From Octopus vulgaris (lineage: Eukaryota), in the NCBI GenBank assembly GCA_951406725.2, contig OX597832.1, positions 5,952,001-6,016,000 of the forward strand: a DNA stretch of 64,000 nucleotides, given 5' to 3'. The position numbers and the translations under genes are program-made. Each line of letters starts with the position of its first letter. Position 1 is the stretch's first letter. The notes under the pieces were generated by a model. It was given only the letters and a program-made list of their open reading frames with translations. It was not told the origin of the DNA and searched no databases. This document shows, in pieces, positions 2,862 to 63,640 of the stretch.

Positions 2862-3182
2862 TGTAGTAAAGATTGATTGCCAACATAGCATGGCAGCTCT
2901 GGTTTACGACGAATGTTGCTGTAATTTAAGCCCCAGGAGACATCGTCTCTAGTATACGACACGATCTAGCCGAACAATTATTGTGCTAATGAAGGGAAAA
3001 ACCCTGAAATCGCGATACACAGATATTGTTTTGAGTTGAGTGGGGGTGCTAGATTCCCTTGTTCGAAAATATAAGAACACATCGTGTCGAATAGCTAGCT
3101 GAAGACTCCTGGGGCTAAATTACAGCAACATTCGTCCTAAACCAGGACTGCCATGTTATACTGGCAAACGATCTTTACTACA
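2862..3182. mobile_element. MITE-like element with ~100-bp terminal inverted repeats
   Basis: 2862-2965 (tgtagtaaagatt...cgacacgat) is the diverged reverse complement of 3081-3182 (atcgtgtcg...atctttactaca). The spacer is ~115 bp. Confidence 0.75.
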
Positions 3183-23318: not shown

Positions 23319-26092
23319 CATCAACTAGCAGTAGTAGTATTGTCTTTTGCTCATACGATGTCACTATTTCTTTAAATAAAAATGATGACCTAAACTATGT
23401 TAATACTCCTACTGTTGCTGCAAATGTTAATGATGTTGATAATGATGATGATGATAGTGGTGGTGGCTGCTGCTGCTGCTGCTGCTGCTACTAGTGTTTG
23501 TGATAATGACGACGATGATTGATGGAGAATGGTGAAGTGTAATAGGAGACGGTGTAATAGCACATGAAATATGGCACGCGTAAAAACAAAAAAAAAACCA
23601 CAAGCAAAAAGAACCCTGATCCTCCTGCTACATGAATTTGTCCTCGCACGTGTTGATATATTGTTGCACATTGTATTATAGTGGTATTTGATAACTGTTG
23701 GCAACAGAACAAAAACAGCACGTCGCAGCTAATTACCAGGCGAAGGTGGAATACTGACAATGAAGTCAGCGGGAATACCAACAGTGAAATAAGAAGGTAC
23801 GTGCATTCAGTTACCGACAAAATATACATGAATGTCTTACAATAATATAAAGCTTTTGATTTATCGGCCAATAAATGAAATTCTGTAATAGACCTTTTCA
23901 AACTGCATTAATTAAGCTATCTAAAGGAAGAGAATAAGCTTCGATCAGAAATTGAAACCGTGTTGTGGATTCCACACCTCGGGAATTTAGCTCCAGCTCT
24001 ACTGCCTTCATCAAAATATATCATATATAATGTATTTGACTTGACGTAGATGAAGTAACAAGCTTCTGTTTTCAGTTGAGAATCAACTCTCGATTCATCG
24101 AGCACCTACTTTTTGTTTAATAGAAGTTGCTGTATATTTTATAGGATTCCCATTTTGGGAAATTAGCGCCAGCTCAGAAGCCTTCATTAAAATGAATTAT
24201 ATATGATGTAGTCTGCCTTGATGTTGATAAAGTAATAAAGCTTCCGGTTAAGAATCAGACACGCTATACAAACTAATCTTGTTCGTATATTGTGTCTGAT
24301 TCTTAACCTTATTTTACTGGATTCGCCAGAAAATAAAATACAATATTGATTTCGAATCAGCACAAAATTTCTGAAAGAGAAGGGTGAATACAATTGAGTC
24401 AACTCCGGTATATAACATTCTATTGACTTGGTTTGCAGGAAGTGACTATGCTCAGGTTTTGCAAGGTGAATCAAGACTATTTCAAAACCTCGGGCTGCGG
24501 AGGTCCTCTCAAAGTTCAAGAACTCTGTGAAATATTTTTATAGCGAGGGCCTCGTCAGATATTCACAAGCCCCGCTCACCTTCTCCAACCTCGTTTCTTT
24601 GGGCCCCAGACTGATGAACTAGCTGTGGCGATGATCATTTCAGATTTTCCAAGGTCTGTAAGACCAACCAACTGCTGGAAAACCATAAAGAAAAAATGTC
24701 TGCAGAGGTTAAAATCTAGAGAAAGTGGGTTCTGTTAGAGTGAACGTCTAGGTGCATACTTTGTGCTGGAACTGAGGACTAGCCACAGTTATGGGTATAT
24801 ACATCCATACATGTATATATGAATGTATGTATTTATGTATGTACACACATGTGTGCGTGAATATATATAATATATATACATATATGTGTGTATGTATGTG
24901 TATGTATGTGTATATATAAGGGTCGCTACTTTTTGTTTACTTATCTTATTTTCCATTTTTTCTCTCGTTGTTTATGTATTTAACTCGCTTGCTTACGTAT
25001 TTCACGTTGTTTTCACAGTTGGTGACGTCCTGTACCCATATATGCATGCTTACATATATATGCGTGGGTATGTATACACACACACACACACACACATGTA
25101 TGTATGTATATATGTATGTATGTATGTATGCATGTATGTATGTATATATGCATGCATACATGCATGTATGTATGTATGTATGTATGTATGTATGTATGTA
25201 TGTATGTATGTATGTATGTATGTATGAATATATGCACGAGTGAGTGAGTGAACAAATGAAAGAGTCACTCAACACGGTATGACTTATATATATAACTATT
25301 TAAAACAGTTTGTTTCGGTTCTATGGAACTTCAAGTTTCGTAGGTTCGTCATAGGAACCTAGCTCGTCGGGCAACGAGAAAATAGGAAAACTGAAGTCCA
25401 GGGCGATATGATACACTAGTTTGATGTAATATTTCTATTGATTGGGCATAAGTCATTAACTTCAATTTGGAATTGTAACAGCATTATAGTTTCGACTTGT
25501 CCAAAGCTTATTTCTAATCGAACTGTTGAGCAAGTTGACAGAAACGGTTTGAGATCAAATGGTTTCTCTCATTCATGCTGGTAAATATAATTTATGTAAA
25601 AGCAAGAGGCTTAATCTGTCAATCGGTTTAACATAATCTTGCTTTCGGTGTCTGTAATGTAGTTTATTCTCTTGTCAGCGTTCAGACCAGGTCCCTAATC
25701 TGAGGATAATATCCGTCCTTTTCCCTCGCAGTTTCGGTGACCCCGGAAGTAATCTTGGATCATTCTGTCATTTCTCTCCTGACTAAATCATAATATTTGG
25801 GTGGGCGTCCGATTCAGTGGCTTTCCACTTCCCTAACAACCTTGGCTAATTACCTCGTTAATCGCCATCAGTACAAATTGCTTCATAATTGTCTGTTTTG
25901 TCGCAGTTCTGGAGAGATCTTAATGGCCGTGTAGATAGGTTGTTTGGCTCTGGTACCAGTGTACCAGTAATACACTGGTATCTTGCCACAAGTACTTTGA
26001 AAGTAACAGCTCAGCGGTCGTCGAAACCCTTTATGGATGTGAAATAGTTTTGGCTTGATTTTTGCATGCATACTTGCATATATAAACACATT

Positions 26093-26160
<68 letters not shown>

Positions 26161-26790
26161 AAAGAGAGAGAGAGAGAGAGAGAGAGATCATTATAGAAAT
26201 AAATATTATATATTCTTGCAAAGCTTTTACAAACAGCTCAATAAATATGAATGGATACAATTTTAGAACGACTATAAAATAATATGACGAAGGCCTAAAC
26301 AAAAAGACATTTGAAAATAAAGATAAGTTATACATGATCAATGTATGTGTATGTTTTAATTATATTTTTTTAAAAGCCAAAACAAGACAATTTATAAAAA
26401 TGAAACAGGCTAATAGTACCAAGTATTTCAATATTTCAGGGATAGGACACTCCTCGTGAAATCTTTGAAGATAAGGTTATTTGCTGAGTACTCTGACCTG
26501 TAATGTGTGTGTATTTGATATGCGTCACTATAGTTACAGTCGGCTGCGTGCAACTCTGATTTGTTATAATATATAATGTGTATTTCTTAATTGAAAGATC
26601 TTTTATTCCTAAGTTTCAATGGAAACCTGCATGTGTCGGGTACATTTCTACAGATGCCTTTTGACGCAAGAAGCATTAACACAGAGATCTTCTTTAAACT
26701 CTAAATGTAATTGTCCGATGTTTCTTCCGATAGAAAATTCGTTGCATTAGCTATATATTAAATAATGAAATATATTATGATTTTATTATA

Positions 26791-27344
26791 TTGGGTTGTC
26801 CGGAAAGTTCGTGCCGATTCATAGTAGCTTACCTTTCGACTTATTTTAGAACATGGTTGAGTCCATGAAATAGGATTTGACTACACCTCCATTTAAGCTA
26901 TATTTTCGTGGAAGAAGGTTTATGTTCCTATAACCTGTGTTAATTCTGTAACCCTTTAAAATGGAAGATAAGGAAGTTCATTTTCGGCACTTGATGCTTT
27001 GGGAACCAGACAAAAATTGCTGCAGCTCGGCTGGGATGTGTTACCTCACCCTCCATATTCACCAGATATTGCTCCTTCGGATTTCCACTTATTCAGGTCT
27101 CTACAGAATAGTCTTAATGGTAAAAATTTCAATTCCTTGGATGACGTAAAAAGATACCTTGATTAATTCGTTGCCGTGAAACCACCTCAGTTCTGGAAAG
27201 AGGGTATTTTCAAGTTAAAGGAAAGATGGAGACGCAGTGTGCAACAAAATGGTTCACATTTGGTTGATTAAAAATGTAATGGCAAGTATTTATTAACCTT
27301 TTTCTTTCCTTTAAATATCGGCATGGACTTTCCGAACAGCCCAA
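26791..27344 (+). mobile_element. Internally deleted non-autonomous mariner (554 bp)
   Basis: TIRs ttgggttgtccggaaagttcgtgccgat and atcggcatggactttccgaacagcccaa, with TA on both sides. MEDKEVHFRHLMLWE is fused out of frame to LGWDVLPHPPYSPDIAPSDFHLFRSLQNSL. Confidence 0.95.
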
Positions 27345-28054
27345 TAGAATTCTTCTCTTGCATATTTAAGTATTGTTCTTCCCTTTTATTTAAATTTATA
27401 TACTATATATTTTACAACATTTATATTTTCCTTTACATTTTATCTTTTATTTTTTTACTTTACCTTTATGTTTATGTTATTTTATTTTATTTTATCTTTA
27501 TTTACATCAATAATTCACTAGCTGAATACATACGCATTATACATTATATATACGATCTAACTTCTTAAACTTATAAGTAATTCGTCAGCATCCTTTCAAG
27601 AAATAAGTTAACCTTTGTTGTATAAGCTCATAAAGTCCTGATGAGGTTCTGCCCCATATAGTTGAAATGATAACCAATTCTTAGCATATGACCCTACCCA
27701 AATGCTTAGAAATACGAATCACTTTGGGGTATGAATCGAAAAATATAAGTAGGATTTTGGCATCTGCTATTGCTTTTAGAGTTTTATAATTTCTAATTTA
27801 TTTGTATTGCTTTAATAAAAAAAAAACTTTCAACCTCATAATATCATACATATAAATTATTTATGTATCCATAATTCTCTATTTTCTTTCTGTCATTATT
27901 AACTATATGTATTACTATAGAAGTCCCTAACATATCGTCGAGACTTCTTCTTTGAGGACCTGACCTCCCTAATGAGGACCTGGCATCCTCGAATTGACTA
28001 TATACATATATATGTACACACTTACACACGCACACAAACACATACACACATGCA

Positions 28055-33213: not shown

Positions 33214-33218
<5 letters not shown>

Positions 33219-33950
33219 ATCCAAACAAGAAAACACAAAAAACAAAAAAGCACAACAACGCGATGACGTGGAACAAATAAAGTATTATTGGACGCTCAGG
33301 AAAGAAGGGAAGAAGGAGAGTTTAACGTTTCGAGCGGAGCTCTTCATCGGAAACATAGGAAAAGGAAAGATCCCGAGAAGGGAAGACAGAGGAAAAAATC
33401 GCCAGCGCTACTCACGAGGTCACATATTGAAAGACCGGAAGTAGAAAGGTGGAAGAATAATGTTTTTTAAAGACAGGAGAGTTTTCAAAGACAGTAGGTA
33501 GTATGTCAAAGACAAGGAAAGTGAGGGGGGAATGTGTGTGGATGTGTGCGTGCGCGGAGGTCTGCATATGCGCGTGTGTGTGTATGTGTGCAATGATGAC
33601 ACGTGTGTGTATGTGTGCAATGATGACACGTGTGTGTGCGTGTGTGTGTGTGTATGTGTATATGGCGAACAACTGGCTAGTAGCTGGCCAGTTTGTAAGA
33701 ATAAGGAGTGGTGTTTTTTGTGTCCAGCCACAGGTCAAAACAAAGAGGTATGTGTGTGTGCGTGTATGTATATGTATCATGTGTGTGTTTTGTTTGTAGT
33801 GTGTGAGTGTATGTGTGTGTTCGTGTGTGTATGCGTAGAGTTTGGGTGTGTGGCGAGAAACTGTGCTTAACTTAGTGTATGTGTGCGTGTGTGCTTGTAC
33901 GTGCGTGTGTGTACAAATGTAGAAGTTTATATGTGTGTTTATATGTTTAT
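33214..33950 (-). mobile_element. Penelope-like 3' terminal region ending in (TA)n
   Basis: CA-rich UTR, HHR motif and terminal segment are homologous in layout to the GIY-YIG-linked copy at 53452-53900. Confidence 0.6.
33320..33354 (-). ncRNA. Minimal type I hammerhead ribozyme-like motif
   Basis: GUUU-CCGAUGA-A-GAGC(UCC)GCUC-GAAACGUU-AAAC. Helix I GUUU/AAAC, helix II GAGC/GCUC, palindromic helix III, U4C core variant. Confidence 0.7.
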
Positions 33951-34116: not shown

Positions 34117-34314
34117 TAACAAAAAGGGACAACAAAACATCCAGATATACGATACAAAAAAACAAGGTAATGTCATTCGAAGCTTTCTATCCTCAGTCAA
34201 GAACCGGATCATCCTCGCAATTTTGGCTGATTATCGTCTATGGATGTTTTGTTGTCCCTTTTTGTATCACCTAGTTGTCCGGATCTTTTGCGTTCTTGTC
34301 CCATTTTGTATTAT

Positions 34315-40200: not shown

Positions 40201-42005
40201 GTGAACACTTGAAACCTTATATATAAATTATACACAAGACTAAGTATATTATATACATGACTATAGAGGTTTCTTATGAGGGTTTCAATGAGGACACCTG
40301 TCAATCAGGTAAACTGTCAAGAAAACTCAAGAAGTAAAACTAATATTTTTGTGTTAGTTTTGTAGCAAAAATTTCACTGAAACATCTATCTTTTAGTTTT
40401 TGTAAAATGAAAATATGATACATAAAAGTCGTAGATAGTAAACTTATAGATTCTATGTGAATGGTAGACGCTTGTATGGTTGATTAAGAAACCACTGAAA
40501 CTTTTGATTTCATGCTGTGATTTACGAGAGGATCATATTCAGATGATAGCGAATCGAGTTTAGTTTTGGATCGGATATCAGGCTGAAGGGACGAAAGTTC
40601 CTAACCCACTCTATTCAGTCTGCGGATATGAAAGAAGTTCACTTATCTGTAAGCAAGTAATATTACAGCCTCCTTCCCATTTGAACTGACCTGGATCTTA
40701 CGATAAACTTTGCCCCCTCAACCAACTCTTAGCAAATTCTTGACTTCCGCCCCATCGTATATCTCACATACTATTCACATCACCTGTCACTAGCTTTCCA
40801 GCTTTCTTGCATACCAAATCCCCTACATTACTCTAAATAACTCCATTCGCAATTCTGTAACATCAAGGCAACTTTTCTTTGTTTCTTTTTCTCACTGTCT
40901 TTCTTTCCCTCCCTCCCTTCCTTCCTCTCTATCTCTTTCTCTCTGAAAAAGACGATAGTAAGAAACCTTAGACTATTTCACTCCGCGCGGCAGATCAACT
41001 CTTTGAACTTTCCAATGACCATGCATATATAACTCATTGGTGTAAGGAGCGGAATACTACATATATTGCAAATGTTTCATTAGCTTACAATGTGTAGTTC
41101 AAGACTTCTTCTGGGGAAGGCAATGGGATTCACTAGCGGATTCATAATTGGCTTAGAGCTCTGTAGAATTTTGGTTAAACTTGCCATTGTATGTAGTACA
41201 CATTTTGGACATCATTTGGGTGTGACGGCCAATGTTAAACAAGTCGCCCACAAGCATCCACCACCAAGTGAATTCCTAACATTGATGAATATACAGTCGT
41301 AACTGTCGTTTATTTGTATTTAAAAATTTTCCTTAGACCCGCTTTAAAAACAAAAACTGAACATATCTCCCATGTCAAAAAATAAACCGCCTTTAGCTAG
41401 ATAAAAACAAAAAAAAACTTATTTTCAGGGATAACCCATAAAACCGTATCTCTGCTCCAAGAGGATATATAACAATTACTAGATGGTAAGTTAGAACAAG
41501 CTCCATATGAAAGGGAGAAAGAATCTCAAGAACCAAGAATTCTCCAAAGTTGACATGCCAGGTTATCAGATCCTGTCAAACTGTCCAACTCATGCCAGCA
41601 TGGAAAACAGATGTTTAGTAATAATGATGATGTATGTATATATATATATATATATATCTTTATATATATAAAACTGAGAATGTGTGTTTGTCTGTCTGTC
41701 TGTCTGTGTGTTTCCCTAAAACTTGAGAACTACACAACCAATTTCATTCAAATTTTACACATGCCTTACTTAGGGTCCGGGGAGTGTCATCGGCAAAAGA
41801 AATTTAACTTTTTGCCTAGGGCGAGCCCACAGCAATATCATATCTTCTCCATTACGATTCCCTAAAACTTGAGAACTACACAACCAATTTCATTCAAATT
41901 TTACACATGCCTTATGTAGTTTCATGGGCAAAAAAAAAAATGTTCAACTTCTTGCCTAGAGCGAGCCCATAGTAATATCATATCTTCTCCACTATTTTAG
42001 TATTA

Positions 42006-43299
42006 TGAGGGACGTTCAATAAGTAATGCCTCTGACCCACTTGCAGTTGTTTGATCTAGCTGTGCAATTTTGCATGTGCAATTGTTTATATCTCTATAGA
42101 TTAAGTGGCAAATTACAGCTCTGAGCTAATTGTGGTTTCTGATTTACAGGTGTTTGAACTGAGTCAAGTGTGAAATGGAGCCTGTTGAGTGTCAAGCAGT
42201 GATCTGGTTTTTGTATTTGAAAGGACGCACACCACGGGAGACTTTTGATGAAATGAAAGTAACTTATGGTGATGATGCACCATCATATGACCTTGTAAAA
42301 CGCTGGCATCGTGAATTCAAACATGGTCAGAACTCTGTGGAAACAGCTCCCAGATCTGGTCACCCACCTTCTGCCATTGATGAGGCATCTGTCCGTCAAG
42401 TTGAGGCTGCCATTTTGGAAGATCGATGCATAACTATTCGCCAAATAGCCCATGAGGTCAAGATTAGTACCGGGTCTGTGGAAACTATCATTCATGACCA
42501 TTTGCATATGCAAAATGTGCCTGCTAGATGGATTCCCAGGTTGCTCACGCCTTTCCAGAAGCAAGAACGCGTCGAGTACTCGAGGGTGAATTTGGAGATG
42601 TGCCAAGAAGATGAGTCAAAATTTTTCAAAAGTCTGATTACACAGGATGAAACCTGGGTCCATCACGATGATCCAGAGACCAAAGCCCAGTCAATGCAGT
42701 GGAAGCAAAGTGACTCATCCCCTCCAAAGAAGGCAAGGGTGCAGCCCTCCGCTGGCAAGGTCATGCTCACAGTCTTCTGGGACCAGGACGGAGTAGTGAT
42801 GACAGATTTCCTGGCAAAGGGTACCACAATTGCAGGAGCTTATTATGTTTCACTTTTGAGGAAATTAAGAGAAGCTATCAAAATCAAGAGGCAGGGCAAG
42901 ATCAGCAAAGGCATCCTTCTCCTGCAGGACAACGCTCCAGTCCACAACTCGCTTGTCGCCAGATCAGAAGCACAGGCGTATGGCTATGAACTCCTCCCCC
43001 ATCCCCCTACTTTCCTGACCTTGCACCCTCTGATTTTCACCTCTTCCCAGTCATGAAGTTGTTTTTGAAAGGAAAGCGTTTTCCAGATGATGCAGCCTTG
43101 ATTTCTGAAGTCACGTTCAGGTTGGAGGACCAAGCTGGGGTCTTCTACAAAAACGGTCTCCAGAGCTGCATCAAGCAATGGGAGAAATGCGTAACTCTGG
43201 GTGGTTCCTATGTAGAAAAAGACTAATAACTGTGCCAAGTTTCGTTGCTCTACTGCTATGGGAAGTGGGTCAGGGGCATTACTTATTGAACGCCCCTCG
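42006..43299 (+). mobile_element. Full-length mariner (DD34D, irritans-like), 1294 bp
   Basis: TIRs tgagggacgttcaataagtaatgcctctgaccc and gggtcaggggcattacttattgaacgcccctcg. TA duplication at 42004-42005 and 43300-43301. Confidence 0.97.
42175..43226 (+). pseudogene. mariner transposase with a single frameshift
   Basis: The 293-aa ORF has WIPRLL, DETWVH and QDNA. A 1-nt loss in a C-run at ~43005 moves YFPDLAPSDFHLFP...WEKCVTLGGSYVEKD* (stop at 43226) to another frame. Confidence 0.93.
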
Positions 43300-43434
43300 T
43301 ACGCGTTAAAAGTGAAACAAAAATATTTCTCTATTTTATGTCAGATGCTTTCACTTTAACAATAAAAATAATAATAACAATTGAATTATATGTAGTAAGT
43401 AATAATTAAAATCAACGACGGGTCTTTAATGCTA

Positions 43435-48494: not shown

Positions 48495-48984
48495 TAAATA
48501 TATAAAATATATATAATTTGTTATTTATGTTTTGGTTTATGTCTATCACTGTTTGAGTTGCATAATAGTGGTTTTATCTCTAATTTATATCTTATATATA
48601 TATAATAGAATAATAAAGAGAAAGTTCTTGGTATCGTATTACATATATTTGAAAGAATGAGATGGCTTTTTGTGGGAGGGGATAATTTTTATTAAGGTTA
48701 AAATAAAAATCATCCCCTTAAAAAAGCCATCTTTACTCATATATATACGTGTGTGTGTGTATACACACACATATGTGTATATGTGTATATATATATATGT
48801 ATATACGATGGGATTCTTTCAGTTTCCGTCTACCAAATTCACTGACAATGCAAATAGAAGACACTTGCCCAAGGTGCCACGCAGTAGGATTGAACTAGAA
48901 CCATGTGGTTGGGAAGCAAAACTCTTACCACACAACCACGCCTGCGACTATGGTATGCATAAATTTGTCACATAGACAGAAAAT

Positions 48985-49572: not shown

Positions 49573-49635
<63 letters not shown>

Positions 49636-49771
49636 TTGCAAAGATAATCTGGATCTCGACTGAGGAAAAAAAAACTCCGAATGGCCCGTCCTTGTTTTCT
49701 TTGTAGCGTCTATCTGGATGTTCTGTGTTCTTGTTCCATTTTGTATATATATATATATATATATATATATA

Positions 49772-49973
49772 CCGGAGTAAACACATAAATGTGAAACAAG
49801 GTGGAAAAAAGAGTACTCAAATACCAGTGGTAGAGTAATATGCTTTATTTAAAGCAGCAGAAAATTCAACAAAATCTGTTACTCTGAGTTTCTCGTTGCC
49901 GTTCATCAGACAGAACGGCAACGAGAAACTCAGAGTAACAGATTTTGTTGAATTTTCTGCTGCTTTAAATAAA

Positions 49974-49979
<6 letters not shown>
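49772..49979. mobile_element. Foldback HHR element, family H1, copy 1
   Basis: Arms 49838-49904 and 49913-49979 are inverted, with an 8-nt spacer, a ~66-bp one-sided extension and (TA)n on both sides. Confidence 0.9.
49876..49913 (-). ncRNA. Type I hammerhead ribozyme motif
   Basis: CUGU-CUGAUGA-A-CG(GCAA)CG-A-GAAA-CUCAGAG-UA-ACAG. Intact CUGAUGA, GAAA and UH core, helix I CUGU/ACAG, helix III ACUC/GAGU. Confidence 0.8.
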
Positions 49980-50018
<39 letters not shown>

Positions 50019-50561
50019 CATAATTAATAATATCAGGGTAATAAAGATTTTAGAAATTTTTACTACCAGTGGCCTAGCGTACTAGTCAATAGACTATATA
50101 TTATTCATATAAGATACAGTGTACATTTAAACACATTAAGAGGTATCCATCATAGGACTCCCTTATGCTAGAAGGAACAGCTAAAGTCCAAACCACTAAT
50201 TAAGGATAAAATCTCGAAGGGAATGAAAAATAAAAACATTTACCATCTATTTACTGGACCATGGTTTCTGAATGTTTTTAGCAAATAAAATAGGTAAGAT
50301 GGATGGAATTCGAAAGAGAAGGGAAAATTTTAATTTAGAAATAAGGGCGATATTTAGAGAACCTATATGAAGTGTTGACCTTTTTGTTCCTTAGAGTATG
50401 AAAATCCGTGGTTGGTAGAAATATCCAACATCAAGTTGGTTAAAGGTGTTGTCAAGCGAGTTAAAATAGTTGGCTTCCATTGTCCGTATGCACGTATGAC
50501 CCAATGATTGTATGGTTCCACAGACTAAGATCCCACCCAGGAGGTCTTAACCATTCGGTCA

Positions 50562-50629
<68 letters not shown>

Positions 50630-51583
50630 ATGCACGTTCACTTGCACATACATATACACACATATACTCACAGAAATTAAAAAAAACGCAAACGTACCAA
50701 GATGAAATAAAAACAAATTTTACTGGCATTTTTACTGAGAAGGGTAATACTGTGAGAGTGGTGATAAAATACCTTGGAATATTTGTTTTCTCCAAGGTGG
50801 CGAGCTCGCAGAAGCGTTAGCACGCCGGGGGAAATGCTTAGCGATATTCTCATCCGTCTTCACGTTCTGCGTTCAAATTCCGCCGAGGTCGATTTTGCCT
50901 TTCAGGGTCGATAAAATAAGTACAAGTTGAGTACTGAGGTCGATGTCCTGGTGTTGTGCCAAGATTTGATATCGATATGTGTTTTGTTCCTTTACAACCT
51001 ACATTTAACCCCACTGAATTCAACTTTGATCTCATCCTTCCGTGGTCGATACAATGAAGTATCAGTCACGTATACGGCTCAGAATAATTGACTGTTCTCT
51101 CCACCACGGTTTTCTGGCCTGGACTATATTAGAACGATTATAGTAGAGAGCGAGACAAAACATCACGTTGTTTATCAGTCGCTAGTGAAGTGTGTCAGTA
51201 CATAATAAGTAAACAAGTTATGTAAACCCACATCGTGAAGTATATTTGTTTTGGACTTAACAAGGAAGGAAAAAAAACAGAAAACTTTAGTTTGTTCTAA
51301 ACATGAAATCAAAATGCAGACCAATCGTTAAAACACGTGAATGAAACTGTCAACAACTGAGAAAGAAAAAAAATCTTTTATCTCTTACTTGACTGCGGCC
51401 ATGCTGGGGCACCGCTTTGAAGTGTTTTAATCGAACAAAGCGACACCAGGACATATTTTTTAGGCGTACTGCTTATTCTATCGGCCTCTTTTGCTGAATC
51501 GCTAAGTTACGGGGACGTAAACACATCAACATTGGTTGTCAAGCTGTACTGTGAAACCCCCAACCCGCGCGCACACACACATA

Positions 51584-52856
51584 TTGGCTTGGCAAAAAAG
51601 TAATTTAGTTTTTTTAGTTTGAAATAAATGTCATTTTTTTCATACAAACAATGAACTATATATTTTCCATTTTGTTCGATGATCTTTTGCCATCTTTCTG
51701 GCAACTTCATGATTCCGCGCTCATAGAGCTTCTGGTCCTTATCACCGAAAAACTGAAGCAAGTGATATTTCATGTCACCATCATTATTGAAAGTTTCACC
51801 ATTCAAAGAATTTTGCAAACTATGAAATAACTGGTAGTCTGATGGTGCAAGGTCAGAGCTATATGATGGATGTGACATCATTTCCCAAACAAGCAACAAT
51901 AATTTTTCACGAGTTAGTAAAGACGTGTGTGGTCTAGCGTCGTCATGGTGGAACACGATTCTTTACGATTTGCCAATTCTGGCCGTTTTTCTTTGATTGC
52001 TTCCCTCAGTTTCATTAGTTGTTGACAGTAAACATCTGAAATGATCGTGTGATTCCTTGGAAGCAGCTCAAAATACAGAACGCCTTTGTAATCCCACCAA
52101 ATTGAAAGCATGACTGTTTTTTGTTGCAATTCAGATTTCGATATGGTTTGTGCTGGTTCAATACGCTTGGACCATGATCGTTTTCTATTGATGTTATTGA
52201 AGACACTCCATTTTTCATTACCAGTGACGAATCGCTTCAAAAAAAGGTCGATTTTACAGCGTTTGAGATTAATATATTTAAAATATTGATTCGTTGTATT
52301 AAGGAAATCTCTTTCCATTTATGTAGAATCAAAATATTGAGCTTCTTATTGAGTCCAAGACATTTTAAGTGATTTTCAATAGTTGTATGCGATACATTTA
52401 ACCTCTCTGTAATCCCTCACACAGTTATATGACTCTCAGATTCAATTATGGATTTGATTCGGTCATCATCAACTTCAGTAGATCGACCAGAGCGTTGGGC
52501 ATCTTTGAGTGAAAAATTTCCAGAAGGGAATTTTTTTAACCATTTCTGACATGTGCGTTCTGTTAAGCAATCAACACCATAAACTTCACCTGTCTTTGTG
52601 AGCCTCAGCAGCTTTCTTGCCTATACGGAAATAAAAGAGCAAAATATGGGGGAAATGTTCGTTTTTGCACTCTATGTTAAAACTGACACTGAACTAACAG
52701 GTGTAAACAAAATTACGCGCAATTTGTTTCTAAAGTAAGCAAAAAGTAACGGCTATCAAATGTCAAAGAAAAAATCATGACATTGACAAAAGTTTTTTTA
52801 AAACATCGTAACTCTAGCGCTTTGCAAAAAATGAAATTACTTTCTTGTCAACCCAA
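51584..52856 (-). mobile_element. Full-length degraded mariner (1273 bp)
   Basis: TIRs ttgggttgacaagaaagtaattt and ttggcttggcaaaaaagtaattt with TA flanks. Motifs VTGNEKW, MLSIWWD, FHHDDARPH and YSSDLAPSDY are present with several frameshifts. Confidence 0.95.
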
Positions 52857-52923
52857 TACACACAGACACGCACACACACTCACATACACACACACACACA
52901 TACATACATACATATATATATAC

Positions 52924-53010
<87 letters not shown>

Positions 53011-53015
<5 letters not shown>

Positions 53016-53409
53016 ATATTAATTAGAGACAAAACCACTATTATGCAAATCAAACAAAGAAAGACTTAATCCAATACATAAAAAATTTTATATAAATTAA
53101 ATATAATTAAGATTAATTAAGATATACACTACGATCGTTTCTTGTCACTTCAATGGACATTCATCAGGTAAGGTCTTGAAAACCACCTGATGAATGTCCA
53201 TTGAAGTGACAAGAAACGATCGTAGTGGATATCTTAATTAATCTTAATTATATTTAATTTATATAAAATTTTTTATGTATGGGATTAAGTCTTTCTTTGT
53301 TTGATTTGCATAATAGTGGTTTTGTCTCTAATTAATATTATATTATATTTTACTATAAAATTGGATTCAATCATAAATCTGATTTTCCCTGTAAATTTGG
53401 ATTTATTCC

Positions 53410-53412
<3 letters not shown>
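53011..53412. mobile_element. Foldback HHR element, family H2
   Basis: Arms ~53011-53169 and 53185-~53345 are near-perfect inverted copies, with a 15-nt spacer, a ~65-bp one-sided extension and (TA)n on both sides. Confidence 0.92.
53183..53228 (+). ncRNA. Type I hammerhead ribozyme motif (mirror copy on - strand at ~53127-53170)
   Basis: CCAC-CUGAUGA-A-UGUC(CAUUGAAGU)GACA-A-GAAA-CGAUCG-UA-GUGG. Helix I CCAC/GUGG, palindromic helix III ACGAUCGU, predicted cleavage after A53224. Confidence 0.85.
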
Positions 53413-53451
<39 letters not shown>

Positions 53452-53455
<4 letters not shown>

Positions 53456-53900
53456 GAATTCACAAAGAAAATAATAAAAGACGAAGACAGGTGCTACAGA
53501 CAACAAAAGCTCGGGAAGTGAAAAAGTCTTTAACGTTTCGAGCCTACGCTCTTCCACAGAAAGGAACACAGAAAAAAAAACAAGGAGAGAAAATAAAGAA
53601 TATGTAGTGGCTAGCGATCTATCATGGCGAATGACCTGAGTGTCATTGCCGAGTCGGATGTTTCGGAGGTGTTCCGCGAACCAGGCAGCCAAGCGGCGTC
53701 CCGTTTGCCGGATGTTTATAGAAGGGCAGAGAGATCAGGAGATGCAGTAGATGACATTGGTAGAAGTGCAGGTGAAGGAGTCGGTGATGTGATAGGGTCG
53801 ATGGTGGATGCCGGTGAGGAGGGTGGTGTTGTAGAGGTAAGGGCAAGTGCGGCAGCGTGGGCAGGGGAAGGGGAAGGACGACTGGCTTCTTTCAGTTTCC
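53452..53900 (-). mobile_element. Penelope-like remnant: GIY-YIG endonuclease fragment plus 3' terminus
   Basis: FTCTSTNVIYCIS*SLCPSINIRQTGRRLAAWFAEHLRNIRLGND, followed by a terminal segment with an HHR-like motif at 53528-53563 and (TA)n. Confidence 0.88.
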
Positions 53901-54811
53901 TAGAAATAGTTGACAAATTTCCATGAAATTATAGTCTAACGCCTAAAAATAGGAAGGACATATCGTACAATGTGGTTCCAGACATTAAACAAGATGGGGT
54001 GATCACGGCTCGAAAGCCTTAGATCATAAGTTTTCCCGGTGGCTCTATCCTCAGCTGAACAAGAACACATACATGTATATGCGCGCGTTTCACTTTGTAT
54101 GTATGTATGCGTGGTAGTGGGGAGGATTCGCGCACGAGTGGAAAGTTGATGTCGACTATCTTTATAAAGTACCGAATAGATCGTTGTGGGCCAGCATAAC
54201 TAGATAAACACGAATAAAAATGTTTGTGCATTTGTGCTTTCATAACTCATGCTGCAGTACACTATGACAATAGCGGTCAGGTCGTTAACCTCGTAACATT
54301 ATTCAAGTGAGTTACGTCAGTCACAAAGTTTGTTTACAAATGTAAATGTGTTACATCCGTCTAAAGTTTGTTTACCTTGTAAAAAGTAATCTTCATCTGC
54401 TATCATTAACAGTTTCGGTGATATGAGTGAACAATGAAACTAGTTGTTTCTATACTTTTACAAGGCTAGCGAAAAATCTTTGGTAGACCATGTTTCTAAA
54501 TACGACATACTATTAAATGTCTGCGATGCGAGTCAAGATATTTACTTATTTATTCATAACCCACTCTAGTTTTCTATTTAAGATACACATACACATACGC
54601 ATAAATATATACTAGCTACCAACTCTAGTTCTCTAGTTCAGTTATACACATGCACACGCATATATACGAGGTGAGTAGCCCGTTGTTGCGGGGCAATTTT
54701 CTGATCATGTCTTCCTCGTCGGATAGGCCACTTGATCAGGATAGATGTTGTTTGGGGCAATTTATGATGTTGCGATAAACGAAGTCTTTTGTTTTCCTAT
54801 TTGGTACATAG

Positions 54812-55224
54812 ATACTCTTTACTCTCTTTTACTCTTTTGCTTGTTTCAATCATTTGACTGCGGCCATGCTGGAGCACCGCCTTTAATCGAGCAACTCGAC
54901 CCCGGGACTTATTCTTTGTAAGCCCAGTACTTATTCTATCGGTCTCTTTTGCCGAACCGCTAAGTAACGGGGACATAAACACACCAGCATCGGTTGTCAA
55001 GCAATGCTAGGGGGACAAACACAGACACACAAACACACACACACATGTATATATACATATATACAACGGGGGCTTCTTTCAGTTTCTGTCTACCAAATCC
55101 ACTCACAATGCTTTGGTCGGCCCGAGGCTATAGTAGAAGACACTTGCCCGAGGTTCCATGCAGTGGGACTGAACCCGGAACCATGTGGTTGGTAAACAAG
55201 CTACTTACCACACAGCCACTCCTG
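54812..55224 (-). mobile_element. SINE family A, full length
   Basis: Reverse complement homologue of 490-940. Confidence 0.9.
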
Positions 55225-55739
55225 TAAAGATTCTTTTTCTACTTCCTACTCTTGAACTCCTAACGTAAAACTATCCATGGGTAAAGTAGGGCTTTTCATG
55301 GTGTAAACTGGTAACCGAAAATGTTCACCTTTGCGATTTGTTGATGGTCGTGGCAAAGCTAAAGCTCACTGGAGATTGAAATCGTTTGAAATAAAACGGG
55401 ATATCGTTTCCTGAGTTCGTGTGAAGGAAGCTCTTGTGCACTCATCACCTAATCGATGCATCCCATGCTGGGTGTCTCCTGAAACCGTGCGACAGAGACT
55501 GGTGCTCGAATATCAAGTCTATTCCCTCTCTGTTCGGGTGTCTCCTGAGCTTGCTGCTAACGCTTTGAGCGAGTTTTTCGACTCAGTCGCCCAAATGAAA
55601 TTTCTTGCATACGTAAGCACGCATGCGCGCGCGTACGCACACACACACATACACACATACATACATACATACATACATACATACATACATACATACATAC
55701 ATACATACATACATACACATATTCAACGTGAGAAATATA

Positions 55740-56280
55740 CATATACAGAGAAAGCGTGAGGGAAAATATGGTTAATATATATAGAGAGGCGAAAAGTTTA
55801 CAGTAGTGAAAGCATAAAAGACAGAGAGACAGATAAACATATGAACTGACAGAGAGGGGTTCATCGAGATACGCACTCGGTTCCTGTAACTGCTTTGCAT
55901 TACATATCATATCAAGAGATAAGTGGGTATGCATGCCTGATACACACACACATGCACACATACACACACACACGCACACACACAGTGAAAGAGAGAGAGA
56001 GAGAATGATAAATATATGCAGAGAGGAGGTAAGTTTACAGTGAGAAAAGCGTAAAAGACAGACAGACAGACGAGACGGACAGATAGAGAGAGGTTCATAG
56101 ACGGACGCGCTCGACTCGTGTGACTGATTTGCATTAGAGGGCATATTAAGAGAGACAGTGGGAGCAGCATTTGTGAGAGACATACATATTTAGAGACAGA
56201 GAGTGAGAGAGTCTATGGTCAATATATAAAGAGAGGGTGACGGCACAAAAGACAGAGACAACACAGATAGACAGACAGTT
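55740..56280 (+). repeat. Diverged ~235-bp tandem repeat (~2.5 units)
   Basis: aatatata..gagagg..aagtttacag..aaagc.taaaagacaga...ggttcat...tttgcatta...aagaga recurs at ~55775 and ~56010, and partly at ~56220. Confidence 0.7.
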
Positions 56281-56291
56281 TGAAGATCACA

Positions 56292-56330
<39 letters not shown>

Positions 56331-56644
56331 ACACAGGGGATCATGAAATCATAACTTTTAAGATGGCGACTTCTAAAGACATTCGATGTTGGCGATCTGT
56401 AAGTTGAGTTTTTTCTCGTAGTAAATTATATTTTTTGATAACTAATAACCAGAAACCTTTTCCTTGAGACGCTAATTTCGAAAATCAAATCCGTTTTCCT
56501 CTCGGGTATAACGTTTCGAAGCCTTTCGGTGATACACACCATAAACTCTCACTTACATAGGTGTATACACACACACGCGCATATATGTGTGTGTGTGTGT
56601 GTGTGTATATGTATGTGAAGGCGCATGGCTCAGTCGTTAGAGCT

Positions 56645-57500
56645 GGACCGTGCCTCTGATCTTTCTCCGCGTGCCTGCCCCACCCTTATTCATCTCCCGT
56701 TCCCCTTCCCTACCACCCCTCCACCCTGTCCCTCCAACGCACCATTCTCCGAGCCTTCCGGCGACTCCAGTCAGACGCCTCCACCTCGCACATCTTCCCT
56801 AACCTACACCTTTCCTCTTTCAAACGAGCCAATAACCTGCCACCTAGTCCACAGTTTCTGCCCTACCCTCACCTCCCAGCCTGGCTCCTCCCACTATACC
56901 CGCTCACGGTATCGCACCCGTTCCTACTCTCCAACACAACCATCCTCACAGGCACCACGTCACCGACTCCTTTACCTACACCTCGAGTAATGTCATTTGC
57001 TGCATCTGCTGCTCTCTCTGTCCTGGGAGGCCGATTGGCTGACCGGTTCGCGGAGCACCTCCAGGACATTAGACTCGGTAATGACAACTCAGTTTCGCGC
57101 CATTTCCGATCTACCGCTCATTCGCTACAACATCTGTTTGTGTTCGGACTGTCTCTACACAGGGGCCACCTGGACTCCCGCCTTCGCTGTGAACAGAAAT
57201 TAATCTTCTCTCTTCGTTCCTTTGTTGCATATGGGCTCAACTCATCTACTCTCTTCATCTGACACCAAACTCATCTCTCTTCACTTAACGCCAATCCCAC
57301 AGGGATTCTCACTCACCTCTCACACCCTCTACCTACATACCGGCATACCCCCTCGGTACCCTCACCCACACTCACCACTATACACACACCGATGCACACT
57401 GTTCAACTCATCACTCACTTCACTCACCATTTCACACCCACCCACAACACCTTCCCACTCCAAACACACTTCTCAGCACCCACACAATCCACCATGATCC
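56645..57500 (+). mobile_element. Penelope-like remnant (GIY-YIG domain to stop, CA-rich 3' UTR)
   Basis: SNVICCICCSLCP..GRLADRFAEHLQDIRLGND..VSRHF...H....L.V.GL......SRLRCEQKLIF.L.....GLN. Same family as 53452-53900. Confidence 0.88.
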
Positions 57501-57526
57501 ACACACAAACACACACAATCTTCAAT

Positions 57527-57738
57527 ACCTATTTCTTTATTACCCACAACAAGGACAGACATAGGTATTAAGTCGATTACATCGACCCCAATGAGTAACT
57601 GGTACTTAATTTATCGACCCCGAAAGGATGAAAGGCAAAGTCGACCTTGGCGGAATTTGAACTCAGAACGTAACGACAGACGAAATACGGCTACGCATTT
57701 CGCCCGGCGTGCTAACGTTTCTGCCAGCTCGCCGCCTT
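57527..57738 (-). mobile_element. SINE family B, alternative-tail subtype
   Basis: Near-identical to 32140-32372 over the head and core. Confidence 0.88.
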
Positions 57739-58042
57739 CAATACCGTCACCACACATACCGCTATATGAGTATCCACACACACTGTTTAACCCAGTACAC
57801 ACATCACACACTATCATGTACACTCCTACACCCACACAAGCACACAATACCTCTACACACACAGTATATACTCCCACATCCACGTAAGCACACAATATCT
57901 GAATACACACAATATATACACATACACACATACACACAACACGCATAAACATACGCAACACACATAGACAAAGATAATTTTCGCTCACACACATGCACTA
58001 TACACATGCACACTATTTGGTCACAGTGGTACAGATATAGAT

Positions 58043-58131
<89 letters not shown>

Positions 58132-58280
58132 CGACGGACTTTTTTCAGAAATCCACTCACAAAGCTTTGCTCAGTCCAAGGCTATAGTAGAAGACAGTTG
58201 CTAAAGGTGTCACACAGAGGAACTGAACACAGAACCATGCGGTTGGAAAGCAGGCTTCTTAGCACACCGTCACGCCTGCG

Positions 58281-58330
<50 letters not shown>

Positions 58331-58332
<2 letters not shown>

Positions 58333-58566
58333 GGAGTAAACACATAAATGTGAAACAAGGTGGAAAAAAGAGTACTCAAATACCAGTGGTAGAGTAATAT
58401 GCTTTATTTTAAGCAGCAGAAAATTCAACAAAATCTGTTACTCTGAGTTTCTCGTTGCCGTTCAACAGACAGTTTTTGCTAGAATCTAGCAAAAACTGTC
58501 TGATGAACGGTAACGAGAAACGAGTAACAGATTTTGTTGAATTTTCTGCTGCTTAAAATAAAAGTA
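58331..58566. mobile_element. Foldback HHR element, family H1, copy 2
   Basis: Starts with the same ccggagtaaacac as 49772. Arms 58403-58483 and 58485-58563 surround a 1-nt centre. HHR motif on + at 58496-58530, (TA)n flanks. Confidence 0.9.
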
Positions 58567-60213
58567 TATATATATATATATATACTGTTGTATTTCGAGT
58601 CATTTTTTTTTTTTTGGCCAAATAAATACACGCACTTTGTTCACTAGCGTCATTACACATACCACTATATAATAGTGCCTGTGTTTATTTGGCAAAAAAA
58701 TAATAAATAAATAAATAAAATGACCGTCCTGAAATACAACATCTGTTTCAACACACGATTTAATATCAGGAATCTTCTCGGAATTCATCATAATCATCAA
58801 TGTTTCTAGACCGTCAGTCTTAACTTCGAGATTTCCGATGTGTAACAACTTCATTGTTATGACAGGTAAATATTTTAATGTTTAGTCCTCTGGGTCAGAA
58901 TTTGAAGTTTGATCGTTAGGTTTACACGTCATAAACCTAACATGGGTGAATATATTCTTAAGGTCAACTTTTACTTATTTGCGAGTACTTCTGGCTTCAT
59001 CACTAGTTCAGTTCTCAACAAATTGAATGCATTTTTTTTAGCAATGATGGTCCAAACCTATGCCACATTCATTTTTTTTTTTTAGCAATGATAGTCCAGT
59101 TCTAAGCTACATTTTGAGATAAATTAAATGAAATTCGGTTCATCCCCAAAAAATGTTAACTCAAAATATGAGGACAAAAATGGAAGAGTAAGGCGAAAAA
59201 TTGACTTTTTTTAAAATATCTCAGTTATTTTAAAAGAAAAGTATAAATTAAATAGATTTAAAAGAATGTGCTCATTGAAAAATAATTTTTTGGTGAAAAC
59301 CTCGTTAAAAAGTATTTGCTACAAAAAAAGTAGTGTGGCTTTAAGTGACAAAAAACATGGTAATTAACCTAAACATTGATTTTGAATCAAAATATCTCAG
59401 CTAACACTGTTTATGATAGTATCATCATCAATTTATGAAGGTAAATATTAATTATAGTAATAGAAGAGTTGCCTGTATAAAAAAGGTGAACTAGAATGAA
59501 GAATGCGGGCGCAGAATCCTAGAATTAACTTCTTTGAAAAAGACAACCGTTTGACTTACAATTACAAGAGTGAAGATTGTGGATCAGATCTTTATGAGTT
59601 TTCAATAACAGCATCTAAGATAGTAAATAATTTTTCAAACTAGTAATTTCAGTAGATATGAGTGGAAAACAGGATCGAAAATCTTTCCATAATCAAGCGA
59701 TATTGTATCAACATTTCTGTAATGTTTTCTTATTTCAGTCATACAGCTTTATCGATCAAAATTCGATCGGCACAGCCTCACACCCTCTTCTTTCTGCTGC
59801 CTGCTCATCATTCCCCAAATTTGTCGTAACGCGAAATTACTATTCCCATTGATTTTCATATTCTAAAATGATAATGTATTCCGAGGAGGTTTTCTGTTAT
59901 TCTTTTTTCGGAAGGAACAGCAAACAAACATATATACAAGCAGCATAATAACTTTTATAAATGAAAATATTTTATAAACATACACAGTGCAATATGTACA
60001 CCAATCCTCATTGACGTAAGATCAAAGACATTTCATTCAACATTTTAAATACTCTGGAGTATCACATTTATCGGTGTGATTGTACATTGTTTTAGATGGG
60101 TGTTGCTTACCTTCTTCGTACTATAGTTGCTGTTGCTGGTGGCCATTGTATTGGTTTTGGAGTTGATGATAAGTATTGGTGATGGTGAAGGTTGATTCAT
60201 GTGTGTGCGCGTG

Positions 60214-60328: not shown

Positions 60329-61532
<1,204 letters not shown>

Positions 61533-62858: not shown

Positions 62859-63041
62859 TTATGATATTTATGTATATGTATATGAATCGCTGATGAAATC
62901 ACCCAAAAATGAACGATATTATCGTTAAAGTTGTGAACTTGTAAAGATTTTTAGGACGATAACTGATGAGGATAGGGCATGTCCATGTCTTGTGCGTGAA
63001 TTTCCCGTTCGCTTATTTCCACTTGTGTTTAATTTTTGAAT

Positions 63042-63083
<42 letters not shown>

Positions 63084-63089
63084 TTATAT

Positions 63090-63634
63090 ATCACCTCTCC
63101 CACTACCCAACATCACCGCACCACACACCACCACACCACAACACACCACCACACACCAACACCACCATACCACACCACATCACACCACCCCGCACGTACT
63201 ACCATTGACTACCTCCCAGCACCCACACCAACGCACACACTAACACTGACCACTTCCCAGCACCTACACCATCATCCATACACCTACATATGCACACACA
63301 CACACGTCAATATCACCAGCCCCCTTCCACACGCACATACACGCTCTCACATACACACGCACGCGCACCTTCGTTTTGGGATCACCACTACTTTATTATC
63401 TCCCCTTCTTCCTTGCTCTCCTGTGTGACCCCTTCTGTCTGGTGCTCGCCATGATAGATCGCTAGCCACTAAACCTTTTTCTATTTTCTCTCCCTGTTTA
63501 ATTCTGTGTTTCTTTCTGTCGAAGAGCGTAGGTTCGAAGCGTAGACTTTCTCACTTCCCGAGCGTTAAATTAATACATCTCTTTGTTGTTTACACACCCG
63601 TCTTCGTCTTTTGTTTTTTTGTTTTGTTTTTGTA

Positions 63635-63640
<6 letters not shown>
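63090..63640 (+). mobile_element. Penelope-like 3' UTR/terminus
   Basis: 63445-63640 is homologous to the reverse complement of 53452-53630 (cgccatgatagatcgctagccacta...gtcttcgtctttt). A degenerate HHR lies at 63512-63546. Confidence 0.8.

Follow-up and report, generated by a model that had tools for sequence, protein, structure and literature searches.

What sets the point at which the two arms of a head-to-head insertion meet, and why should that point lie beside a ribozyme motif? The question is raised by a 64-kb stretch of Octopus vulgaris DNA (the window: 64,000 nucleotides (nt) of contig OX597832.1, 37% G+C, with many simple and dispersed repeats), in which three palindromes lying between (TA)n tracts carry a predicted hammerhead ribozyme and a tail on one arm only. 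Two of them (A1 and A2) are copies of one family, A, and the third belongs to an unrelated family, B; all three are likely to be head-to-head stubs of a Penelope-like element (PLE) with one longer arm. The evidence assembled here comes from the window, from public contigs of four runs and from published papers, and it covers five motif-bearing palindromes in all, in each of which (5/5) the arm reaching furthest ends no more than 35 nt upstream of the hammerhead core. We put at about 0.5 the probability that this ceiling reflects run-off of the reverse transcriptase (RT) at the template RNA's 5' end, just upstream of the ribozyme. The ribozyme itself is likely a neighbour of the fold and not its cause.

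Arm positions count from C3 (0), the initial C of CUGAUGA, with negative values lying 5' on the RNA strand. The parts of the three palindromes are as follows.

49744..49771, target tract of (TA)n to the left of A1 that also flanks a solo stub, G2, on its 3' side
49772-49974, A1 palindrome, long and short arm between (TA)n tracts
49772..49913, minus strand, A1 long arm, with its 3' end at 49772 and its 5' end (-4) coinciding with the 5' edge of helix I
49772..49842, minus strand, A1 tail, 71 nt by strict count
49876..49913, minus strand, minimal type I hammerhead motif of A1 with its core at 49909-49903, cut predicted between 49880 and 49879
49913..49974, plus strand, A1 short arm, beginning inside the core at +5
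49975..50014, (TA)n right of A1
52935..53010, (TA)n left of B
53011-53413, B palindrome, of a family unrelated to A, between (TA)n tracts
53011..53169, minus strand, B short arm, 5' end at -2 (about -10 in an alternative gapped alignment)
53170..53413, plus strand, B long arm, 5' end at most -17 (about -8 in the alternative gapped alignment)
53183..53228, plus strand, B type I hammerhead motif, helix III palindromic, cut predicted after 53224
53349..53413, plus strand, B tail, 65 nt and up to 70, a single copy whose family membership is presumed
53414..53451, (TA)n right of B, common to the 3' end of a family D copy (53452-about 53890)
58283..58330, (TA)n left of A2
58331-58564, A2 palindrome, the second family A copy, between (TA)n tracts
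58331..58485, minus strand, A2 long arm, 5' end at -17, with one change in the core
58331..58401, minus strand, A2 tail, 71 nt, letter for letter the A1 tail
58485..58564, plus strand, A2 short arm, 5' end at -15, its motif (58496-58530) lacking 3 nt in helix III
58565..58584, (TA)n right of A2

The hammerhead strand points outward on both arms of all three palindromes, giving a head-to-head, inverted and 5'-truncated layout. All six outer ends abut (TA)n, which on both flanks makes any target-site duplication unreadable. The first-pass annotation of this DNA had described two unrelated families with one tailed arm each, and that description is borne out, with 71 nt in both copies of family A and 65-70 nt in B, where the upper figure arises because the short end's TATAT can be assigned to the family as well as to the target. 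It had also recognized Penelope insertions as carrying a short tail on one terminal repeat; the accessible parts of PMC8557442 and PMC3846280 agree, reporting for endonuclease-bearing (EN+) PLE insertions an inverted 5'-truncated copy, junction palindromes, a one-sided tail of 30-40 base pairs (bp) and a bias towards (TA)n. The tail lengths of 66 and 70 nt that it gave for A1 and A2 need correction: the tails are real, but both measure 71 nt, and the figure of 66 for A1 results from assigning the last ATAT and one mismatch to the arm. Nor is a tail of about 65 nt a general constant, as it is about 44 nt in a further palindrome, G, and 30-40 nt in published cases. No shared alignment beyond 6 nt was found between the tails of A and B. 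The two arms of A1 are identical at 62 of 62 paired bases, the arms of B are complementary at 97% over 173 nt, and the long arms of A1 and A2 differ at just 2 of 141 positions. Although the tails of A1 and A2 are identical, their fold centres differ, which means that the mirror half was not inherited from one master palindrome.

At least one arm of each of the three palindromes A1, A2 and B bears a hammerhead pattern (3/3). In a scored scan of the window, eight hits reached a score of 8 or more, against 0.3 per window in a control of 10 shuffled windows. The Rfam model RF00163 (Hammerhead_1) gave 15.1 bits on B (cut-off 34, E 0.22), a value to be read with the caution that minimal forms may score low, and an Rfam search of the A1 motif gave no match. 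Across the whole window Rfam returned 181 matches at E up to 1; among the 150 listed none reached the gathering threshold, and nearly all of these were microRNA models on simple repeats or hairpins. The family A motif lies 67 nt from the short end, with a helix II of only 2 bp and a predicted cut at +30, whereas the family B motif lies 162 nt from its short end, with the predicted cut at +38. Cleavage is a prediction in both families, and two of the three family A motif copies are altered. An AUG inside the A1 core starts a 29-codon frame. Compared with 300 dinucleotide shuffles, minimum free energies gave z-scores of +0.64 and +0.13 for A and -0.84 for B, so that the motifs fold no better than their shuffles. 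Exact family A motifs sought in viral, metagenome and prokaryote contigs gave 0 matches in each. Two decayed hammerhead-like motifs near TA-rich ends, 25330-25375 (minus) and 62890-63043 (plus), were recognized by eye and have a pattern score below 6.

Five of the six arm ends of A1, A2 and B sit 2-17 nt 5' of the core, the sixth being at +5, and the arms meet with an overlap of 0-1 nt. That at least one arm runs through the whole hammerhead, as the first-pass annotation had it, holds for all three palindromes; its placing of the fold at the ribozyme holds loosely, the folds being near the motif but spread over 22 nt and mostly upstream of helix I. Two further palindromes and a solo stub in the window bear on the same point.

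2862..3182, palindrome K, whose unpaired centre holds a hammerhead motif (2986-3017), arms ending at most -20 and +95, no (TA)n flanks
34119..34310, palindrome G, CUGAGGA core-like motif, left arm to -27 and right arm from +37
49633..49743, plus strand, solo stub G2, 78% like G, starting about -27 as G does

The furthest arm reaches at most 4 nt (A1), 17 nt (A2), 17 nt (B), 35 nt (G) and 20 nt (K) upstream of C3, while the other arms end at +5, -15, -2, +37 and +95, respectively. A ceiling of this sort, below which the other ends scatter, would be expected from run-off at the template 5' end followed by trimming. K is by appearance an old palindrome whose motif is well formed, with a 5-bp helix I, a palindromic helix III and a z-score of -2.26.

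At the other end of the element, the public contigs are informative for family A, family B being represented by the window alone. Contigs of runs X1, X2, X4 and X7 (four studies, three organism codes) were aligned on the A2 long arm, where 6421, 1467, 4997 and 1660 contig records, respectively, were placed; loose ends were counted among the rows listed, which prove presence and not absence. Contigs leave the reference at 58397, the short end, into (TA)n in 29 (X1), 40 (X4) and 13 (X7) of the records placed, and among the listed pieces of all four runs there are starts at 58321-58327, in (TA)n at the long end. Pieces with 7-10 differences also start at the long end and leave the reference at 58402-58412. 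Because both the short and the long end recur against (TA)n, both 3' ends of family A are fixed by family. The proposal of two fixed priming positions is therefore supported for family A, and by in vitro data on the Anolis carolinensis element Poseidon_Ac (PAc; PMC11167929), while the B tail is known in a single copy. A diverged A subfamily (58408-58409), with the same tail and long end and a different arm, occurs in all four runs. The contig depth profile falls across the motif, but it was set aside, as the reference has a private base at 58465 with an edge close by and the tail-to-arm depth ratio is uneven between runs, at about 0.5 for X1, close to 1 for X4 and greater than 1 for X2 and X7. 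Likewise, a motif shared by both 3' ends was considered as a general rule and rejected: in G the extension, about 44 nt long, repeats the end motif in degenerate form (best score at +1 of 44 positions), and no such repeat is present in A or B.

All six arms of A1, A2 and B cross the predicted cleavage site, which supports the earlier suggestion of an uncleaved template, and PAc likewise uses unprocessed RNA (PMC11167929). A possible exception is one X4 contig that jumps from 58438, the base directly following the cut, to the (TA)n end of a next copy at 58321; it may be a product of cleaved template or a chance event. Direct tandems of A or B are absent from the window, and that contig holds a single tandem join.

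Put together, these features would fit a sequence of five steps. First, both target strands would be nicked and extended, as observed in vitro for PAc and supposed here for A and B. Second, two family-specific start sites 65-71 nt apart would give the short and the long end, a cause suggested by PAc. Third, the template would be uncleaved, in keeping with the arms that cross the cut site. Fourth, the furthest cDNA would stop by run-off, the RNA presumably starting within the terminal repeat about 20-35 nt upstream of the core. Fifth, the two cDNA ends would be trimmed and joined with an overlap of 0-1 nt, so that each fold differs. There is a precedent for an RNA start shortly upstream of the motif in Drosophila virilis Penelope, where, according to the available portion of PMC2377424, transcription begins 46 bp before a 75-bp intron, and where the intron end, in the part of PMC4209133 at hand, maps to the 5' end of helix I. 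On a more tentative footing than the run-off reading itself, head-to-head Penelope stubs might be regarded as a fossil map of the element RNA, with the outer ends recording two RT start sites and the furthest inner end the transcript 5' end just upstream of the ribozyme. Hammerhead-centred stubs, which are abundant in animal genomes, would then be run-off products from the first, 5'-proximal start-site copy, and could be read family by family from DNA.

Several observations weigh against run-off. Under a crude exponential null, the probability of finding five of five furthest arms within 35 nt is 0.15, 0.03, 0.002 and 0.0001 at mean truncations of 30, 50, 100 and 200 nt, so the result is not significant if typical truncation is 30-50 nt; moreover, the palindromes were partly found through the motif search, and the 35-nt zone was picked after they had been seen. 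The start site is deduced from the DNA ends of five palindromes, of which G has a core that is only core-like and K lies outside (TA)n, and both perhaps reflect another process. Without splicing, start and motif in D. virilis are separated by about 120 nt, which exceeds the ceiling here. Neither an RT nor an endonuclease open reading frame (ORF) was linked here to family A or B, whose stubs carry only the 29-codon frame. The X4 contig ends exactly at the cleavage site (58438). Rows at 58397 and 58485, the latter being the point at which contigs that pass the motif leave the reference, are absent among the six listed for X2, and the contig joints listed include no strand change, so fold positions go uncounted in contigs. 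Palindrome F (48605-48735), which is old, asymmetric (77%) and extended by roughly 40-55 nt, has no hammerhead core on either strand. Finally, copies of family D, which has a variant hammerhead core, extend far beyond their motif, one (63446-63640, plus) by at least 71 nt upstream and another (53452-about 53890, minus) by about 330 nt.

Among the alternatives, the one that survives best, while still unlikely, concerns the origin of the second arm. A single long cDNA would be made first and would fold back at its 3' end to be copied upon itself, with the endonuclease or a fixed second nick setting the short end. This can be combined with run-off as the process that sets the fold position. The tailed arm reaches further 5' in A1, A2 and B (3/3, B being ambiguous), and both arms carry the same allele at a variable site within A1 and within A2, the A2 allele being the rarer one among contigs; with just two elements, however, this sharing is weak evidence, and two cDNAs from one source would account for it too. 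Self-priming has been proposed from junction palindromes and EN-mediated resolution has been proposed for tails, as far as the accessible passages of PMC3846280 and PMC8557442, respectively, go; PAc, in contrast, shows two RT starts directly (PMC11167929). Further arguments against fold-back are the junction overlap of just 0-1 nt, which in A2 would leave a loop of 1-3 nt, and palindrome G, in which the arm with the extension is the more truncated one.

Less probable again is that the ceiling arises from ordinary short 5' truncations, seen through palindromes that were chosen for a motif lying near the short end in any case (67 nt in A and 162 nt in B). The scatter of the second arms from -15 to +95 would be natural on such an account, as would F without a core and B2 (48498-48592), a stub with the same short end as B that starts at about +58, downstream of the cut, and the null allows it at a mean truncation of 30 nt. 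Yet the ceiling tracks the motif at two different distances from the end, for which the three events have a probability of at most 0.005 under a null of their own, and G and G2 start at the same place.

A somewhat weaker candidate is capture by the target, whereby cDNAs that reach an internal (AT)n run shortly upstream of the motif would pair with the (TA)n target and be closed as solo copies, leaving only the shorter cDNAs to become palindromes; the RNA might then start far upstream. Contigs that pass the motif leave the reference at 58485 (10 in X1, 19 in X4 and 3 in X7) into GGAAC and then an AT-alternating run; on the plus strand, family A continues to at least -22, with the run at about -23 to -30. 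This stretch is one of two things, a fixed boundary with the target or a TATA-like run inside the element. Behind it, X4 and X7 agree in their letters, favouring an internal run in the few contigs concerned, and the short ends of A and B also lie on (TA)-like letters. On the other side, the upstream consensus past the median length of 13-24 letters comes from few contigs, no such run is visible upstream of B, G or K in the available sequence, and the shared start of G and G2 is left unexplained.

Stalling or template switching of RT at the folded ribozyme, which the first-pass annotation took to set the fold, is improbable. The A1 long arm does end exactly at the 5' edge of helix I (-4), its short arm stops in the core (+5) and that of B stops at -2. 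The ribozyme of PAc works with protein assistance (PMC11167929), and a bound complex could hence block RT in a manner that folding energies do not reveal, and a dimeric form is likewise conceivable. The positions nevertheless argue otherwise. In RT-stop mapping, a structural stop falls at the strand that RT meets first. Moving 3' to 5', RT would meet the 3' strand of helix I first, at about +30 in A and +38 in B, where none of the six arm ends lies, and at ends 5' of the core it would already have unwound the motif. The z-scores given above point to an unstable structure, the A2 arms run 11-13 nt past helix I and other family A contigs at least 18 nt, and family D reads through its motif altogether. 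The stall claim, which was the new element of that annotation, is thus unlikely, and a ceiling set by the RNA start is a related claim in its place.

The palindromes are very unlikely to be miniature inverted-repeat transposable elements of a DNA transposon or fold-back artefacts of assembly, as, despite being short inverted repeats in TA with no whole-element contig among those listed, they have asymmetric ends, centres that differ between the near-identical A1 and A2, arms that differ by substitutions and indels in A2 and B (93-97%), and cover in X2, a run of another study, that reaches 18.1, the level of one single-copy contig, at 58489-58496 on the far side of the A2 fold (the piece itself not being among those listed).

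Other features of the window may be noted briefly. Three (TA)n tracts are common to the 3' ends of two families (48593-48604 for B2 and F, 49744-49771 for G2 and A1, and 53414-53451 for B and D) and represent repeated insertion into the same tracts. Fragments of families D and E with an endonuclease-like frame lie at 53452-53890 (minus), 63446-63640 (plus), 33215-33440 (minus) and 56640-57260 (plus); these frames, putatively of GIY-YIG type, gave no useful Pfam match, no Atlas hit and no homologue in protein searches. At 60420-61387, within (GATA)n, 243-nt inverted repeats (93%) beginning CACTG enclose a 490-nt centre with a coding piece that presumably derives from the N-terminal region of a non-LTR reverse transcriptase (YRPIA motif), and the whole is possibly a non-autonomous DNA transposon with a captured retroelement fragment. 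The segment 44190-44360 (minus) is presumably the C terminus of an R4/Dong-type non-LTR element, and the elements at 42004-43301, 26785-27350 and 51584-52856, all three bounded by short terminal inverted repeats, are assumed to be mariner copies.

If the ceiling is due to run-off, RT start sites and transcript starts would be readable from thousands of stubs in families of which no active copy is known, and it would be explained why so many stubs begin at a hammerhead; if only short truncation is at work, the octopus palindromes are an ordinary case of the published layout with a longer tail. The formation of inverted ends in PLEs is named as a task ahead in the available text of PMC8557442, and the later insertion steps were left unvalidated in PMC11167929. 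A literature search, with subscription papers mostly outside its scope, gave no statement on fold position relative to the hammerhead, and the accessible parts of PMC6765202 and of a preprint on retrozymes (bioRxiv 10.64898/2026.07.22.740005) contain nothing on folds.

Among known systems, the non-LTR retrozymes of that preprint, as described in its accessible part, resemble A and B in being non-coding, PLE-derived and endowed with a type I hammerhead; retrozymes, however, form direct tandem arrays, whereas A and B are inverted pairs. The minimal type I hammerheads of PLEs, in the portion of PMC4209133 available, share with the present motifs a short helix I, an extra nucleotide after position 9 and a palindromic helix III. 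In metazoan PLEs the same source reports motif pairs on opposite strands 100-700 bp apart; here, by contrast, the cores lie 20-32 nt apart in A2 and B, helix II of family A has 2 bp, and cleavage is predicted. Pen2a of Adineta vaga (PMC3846280, with the scheme in PMC8557442, both in part) offers a head-to-head truncated copy, a junction palindrome, a tail at one end, a (TA)n bias and a TATA-like run in the pseudo-long terminal repeat (pLTR), but in the octopus the two arms are each a stub, 60-245 nt long, and no ORF separates them. The closest relative is PAc, for which the layout and two of the three earlier inferences, namely fixed RT starts and an uncleaved template, are already published (PMC11167929). 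The tail is 65-71 nt here against the 30-40 bp quoted, the main text of that paper is silent on fold position, and A and B are known here from stubs, without a linked protein. In PAc, two adjacent internal RT starts were demonstrated in vitro, the interval between them being the tail, both strands of AT-rich targets were extended from uncleaved template, and hammerhead mutants left insertion unaffected (PMC11167929). The likeness accordingly extends from two RT starts downstream of the hammerhead that define the tail, through an AT-rich target, extension of both strands and an uncleaved template, to a start codon at the motif itself, the AUG standing 27 nt before the cut in family A and 26 nt before it in PAc.

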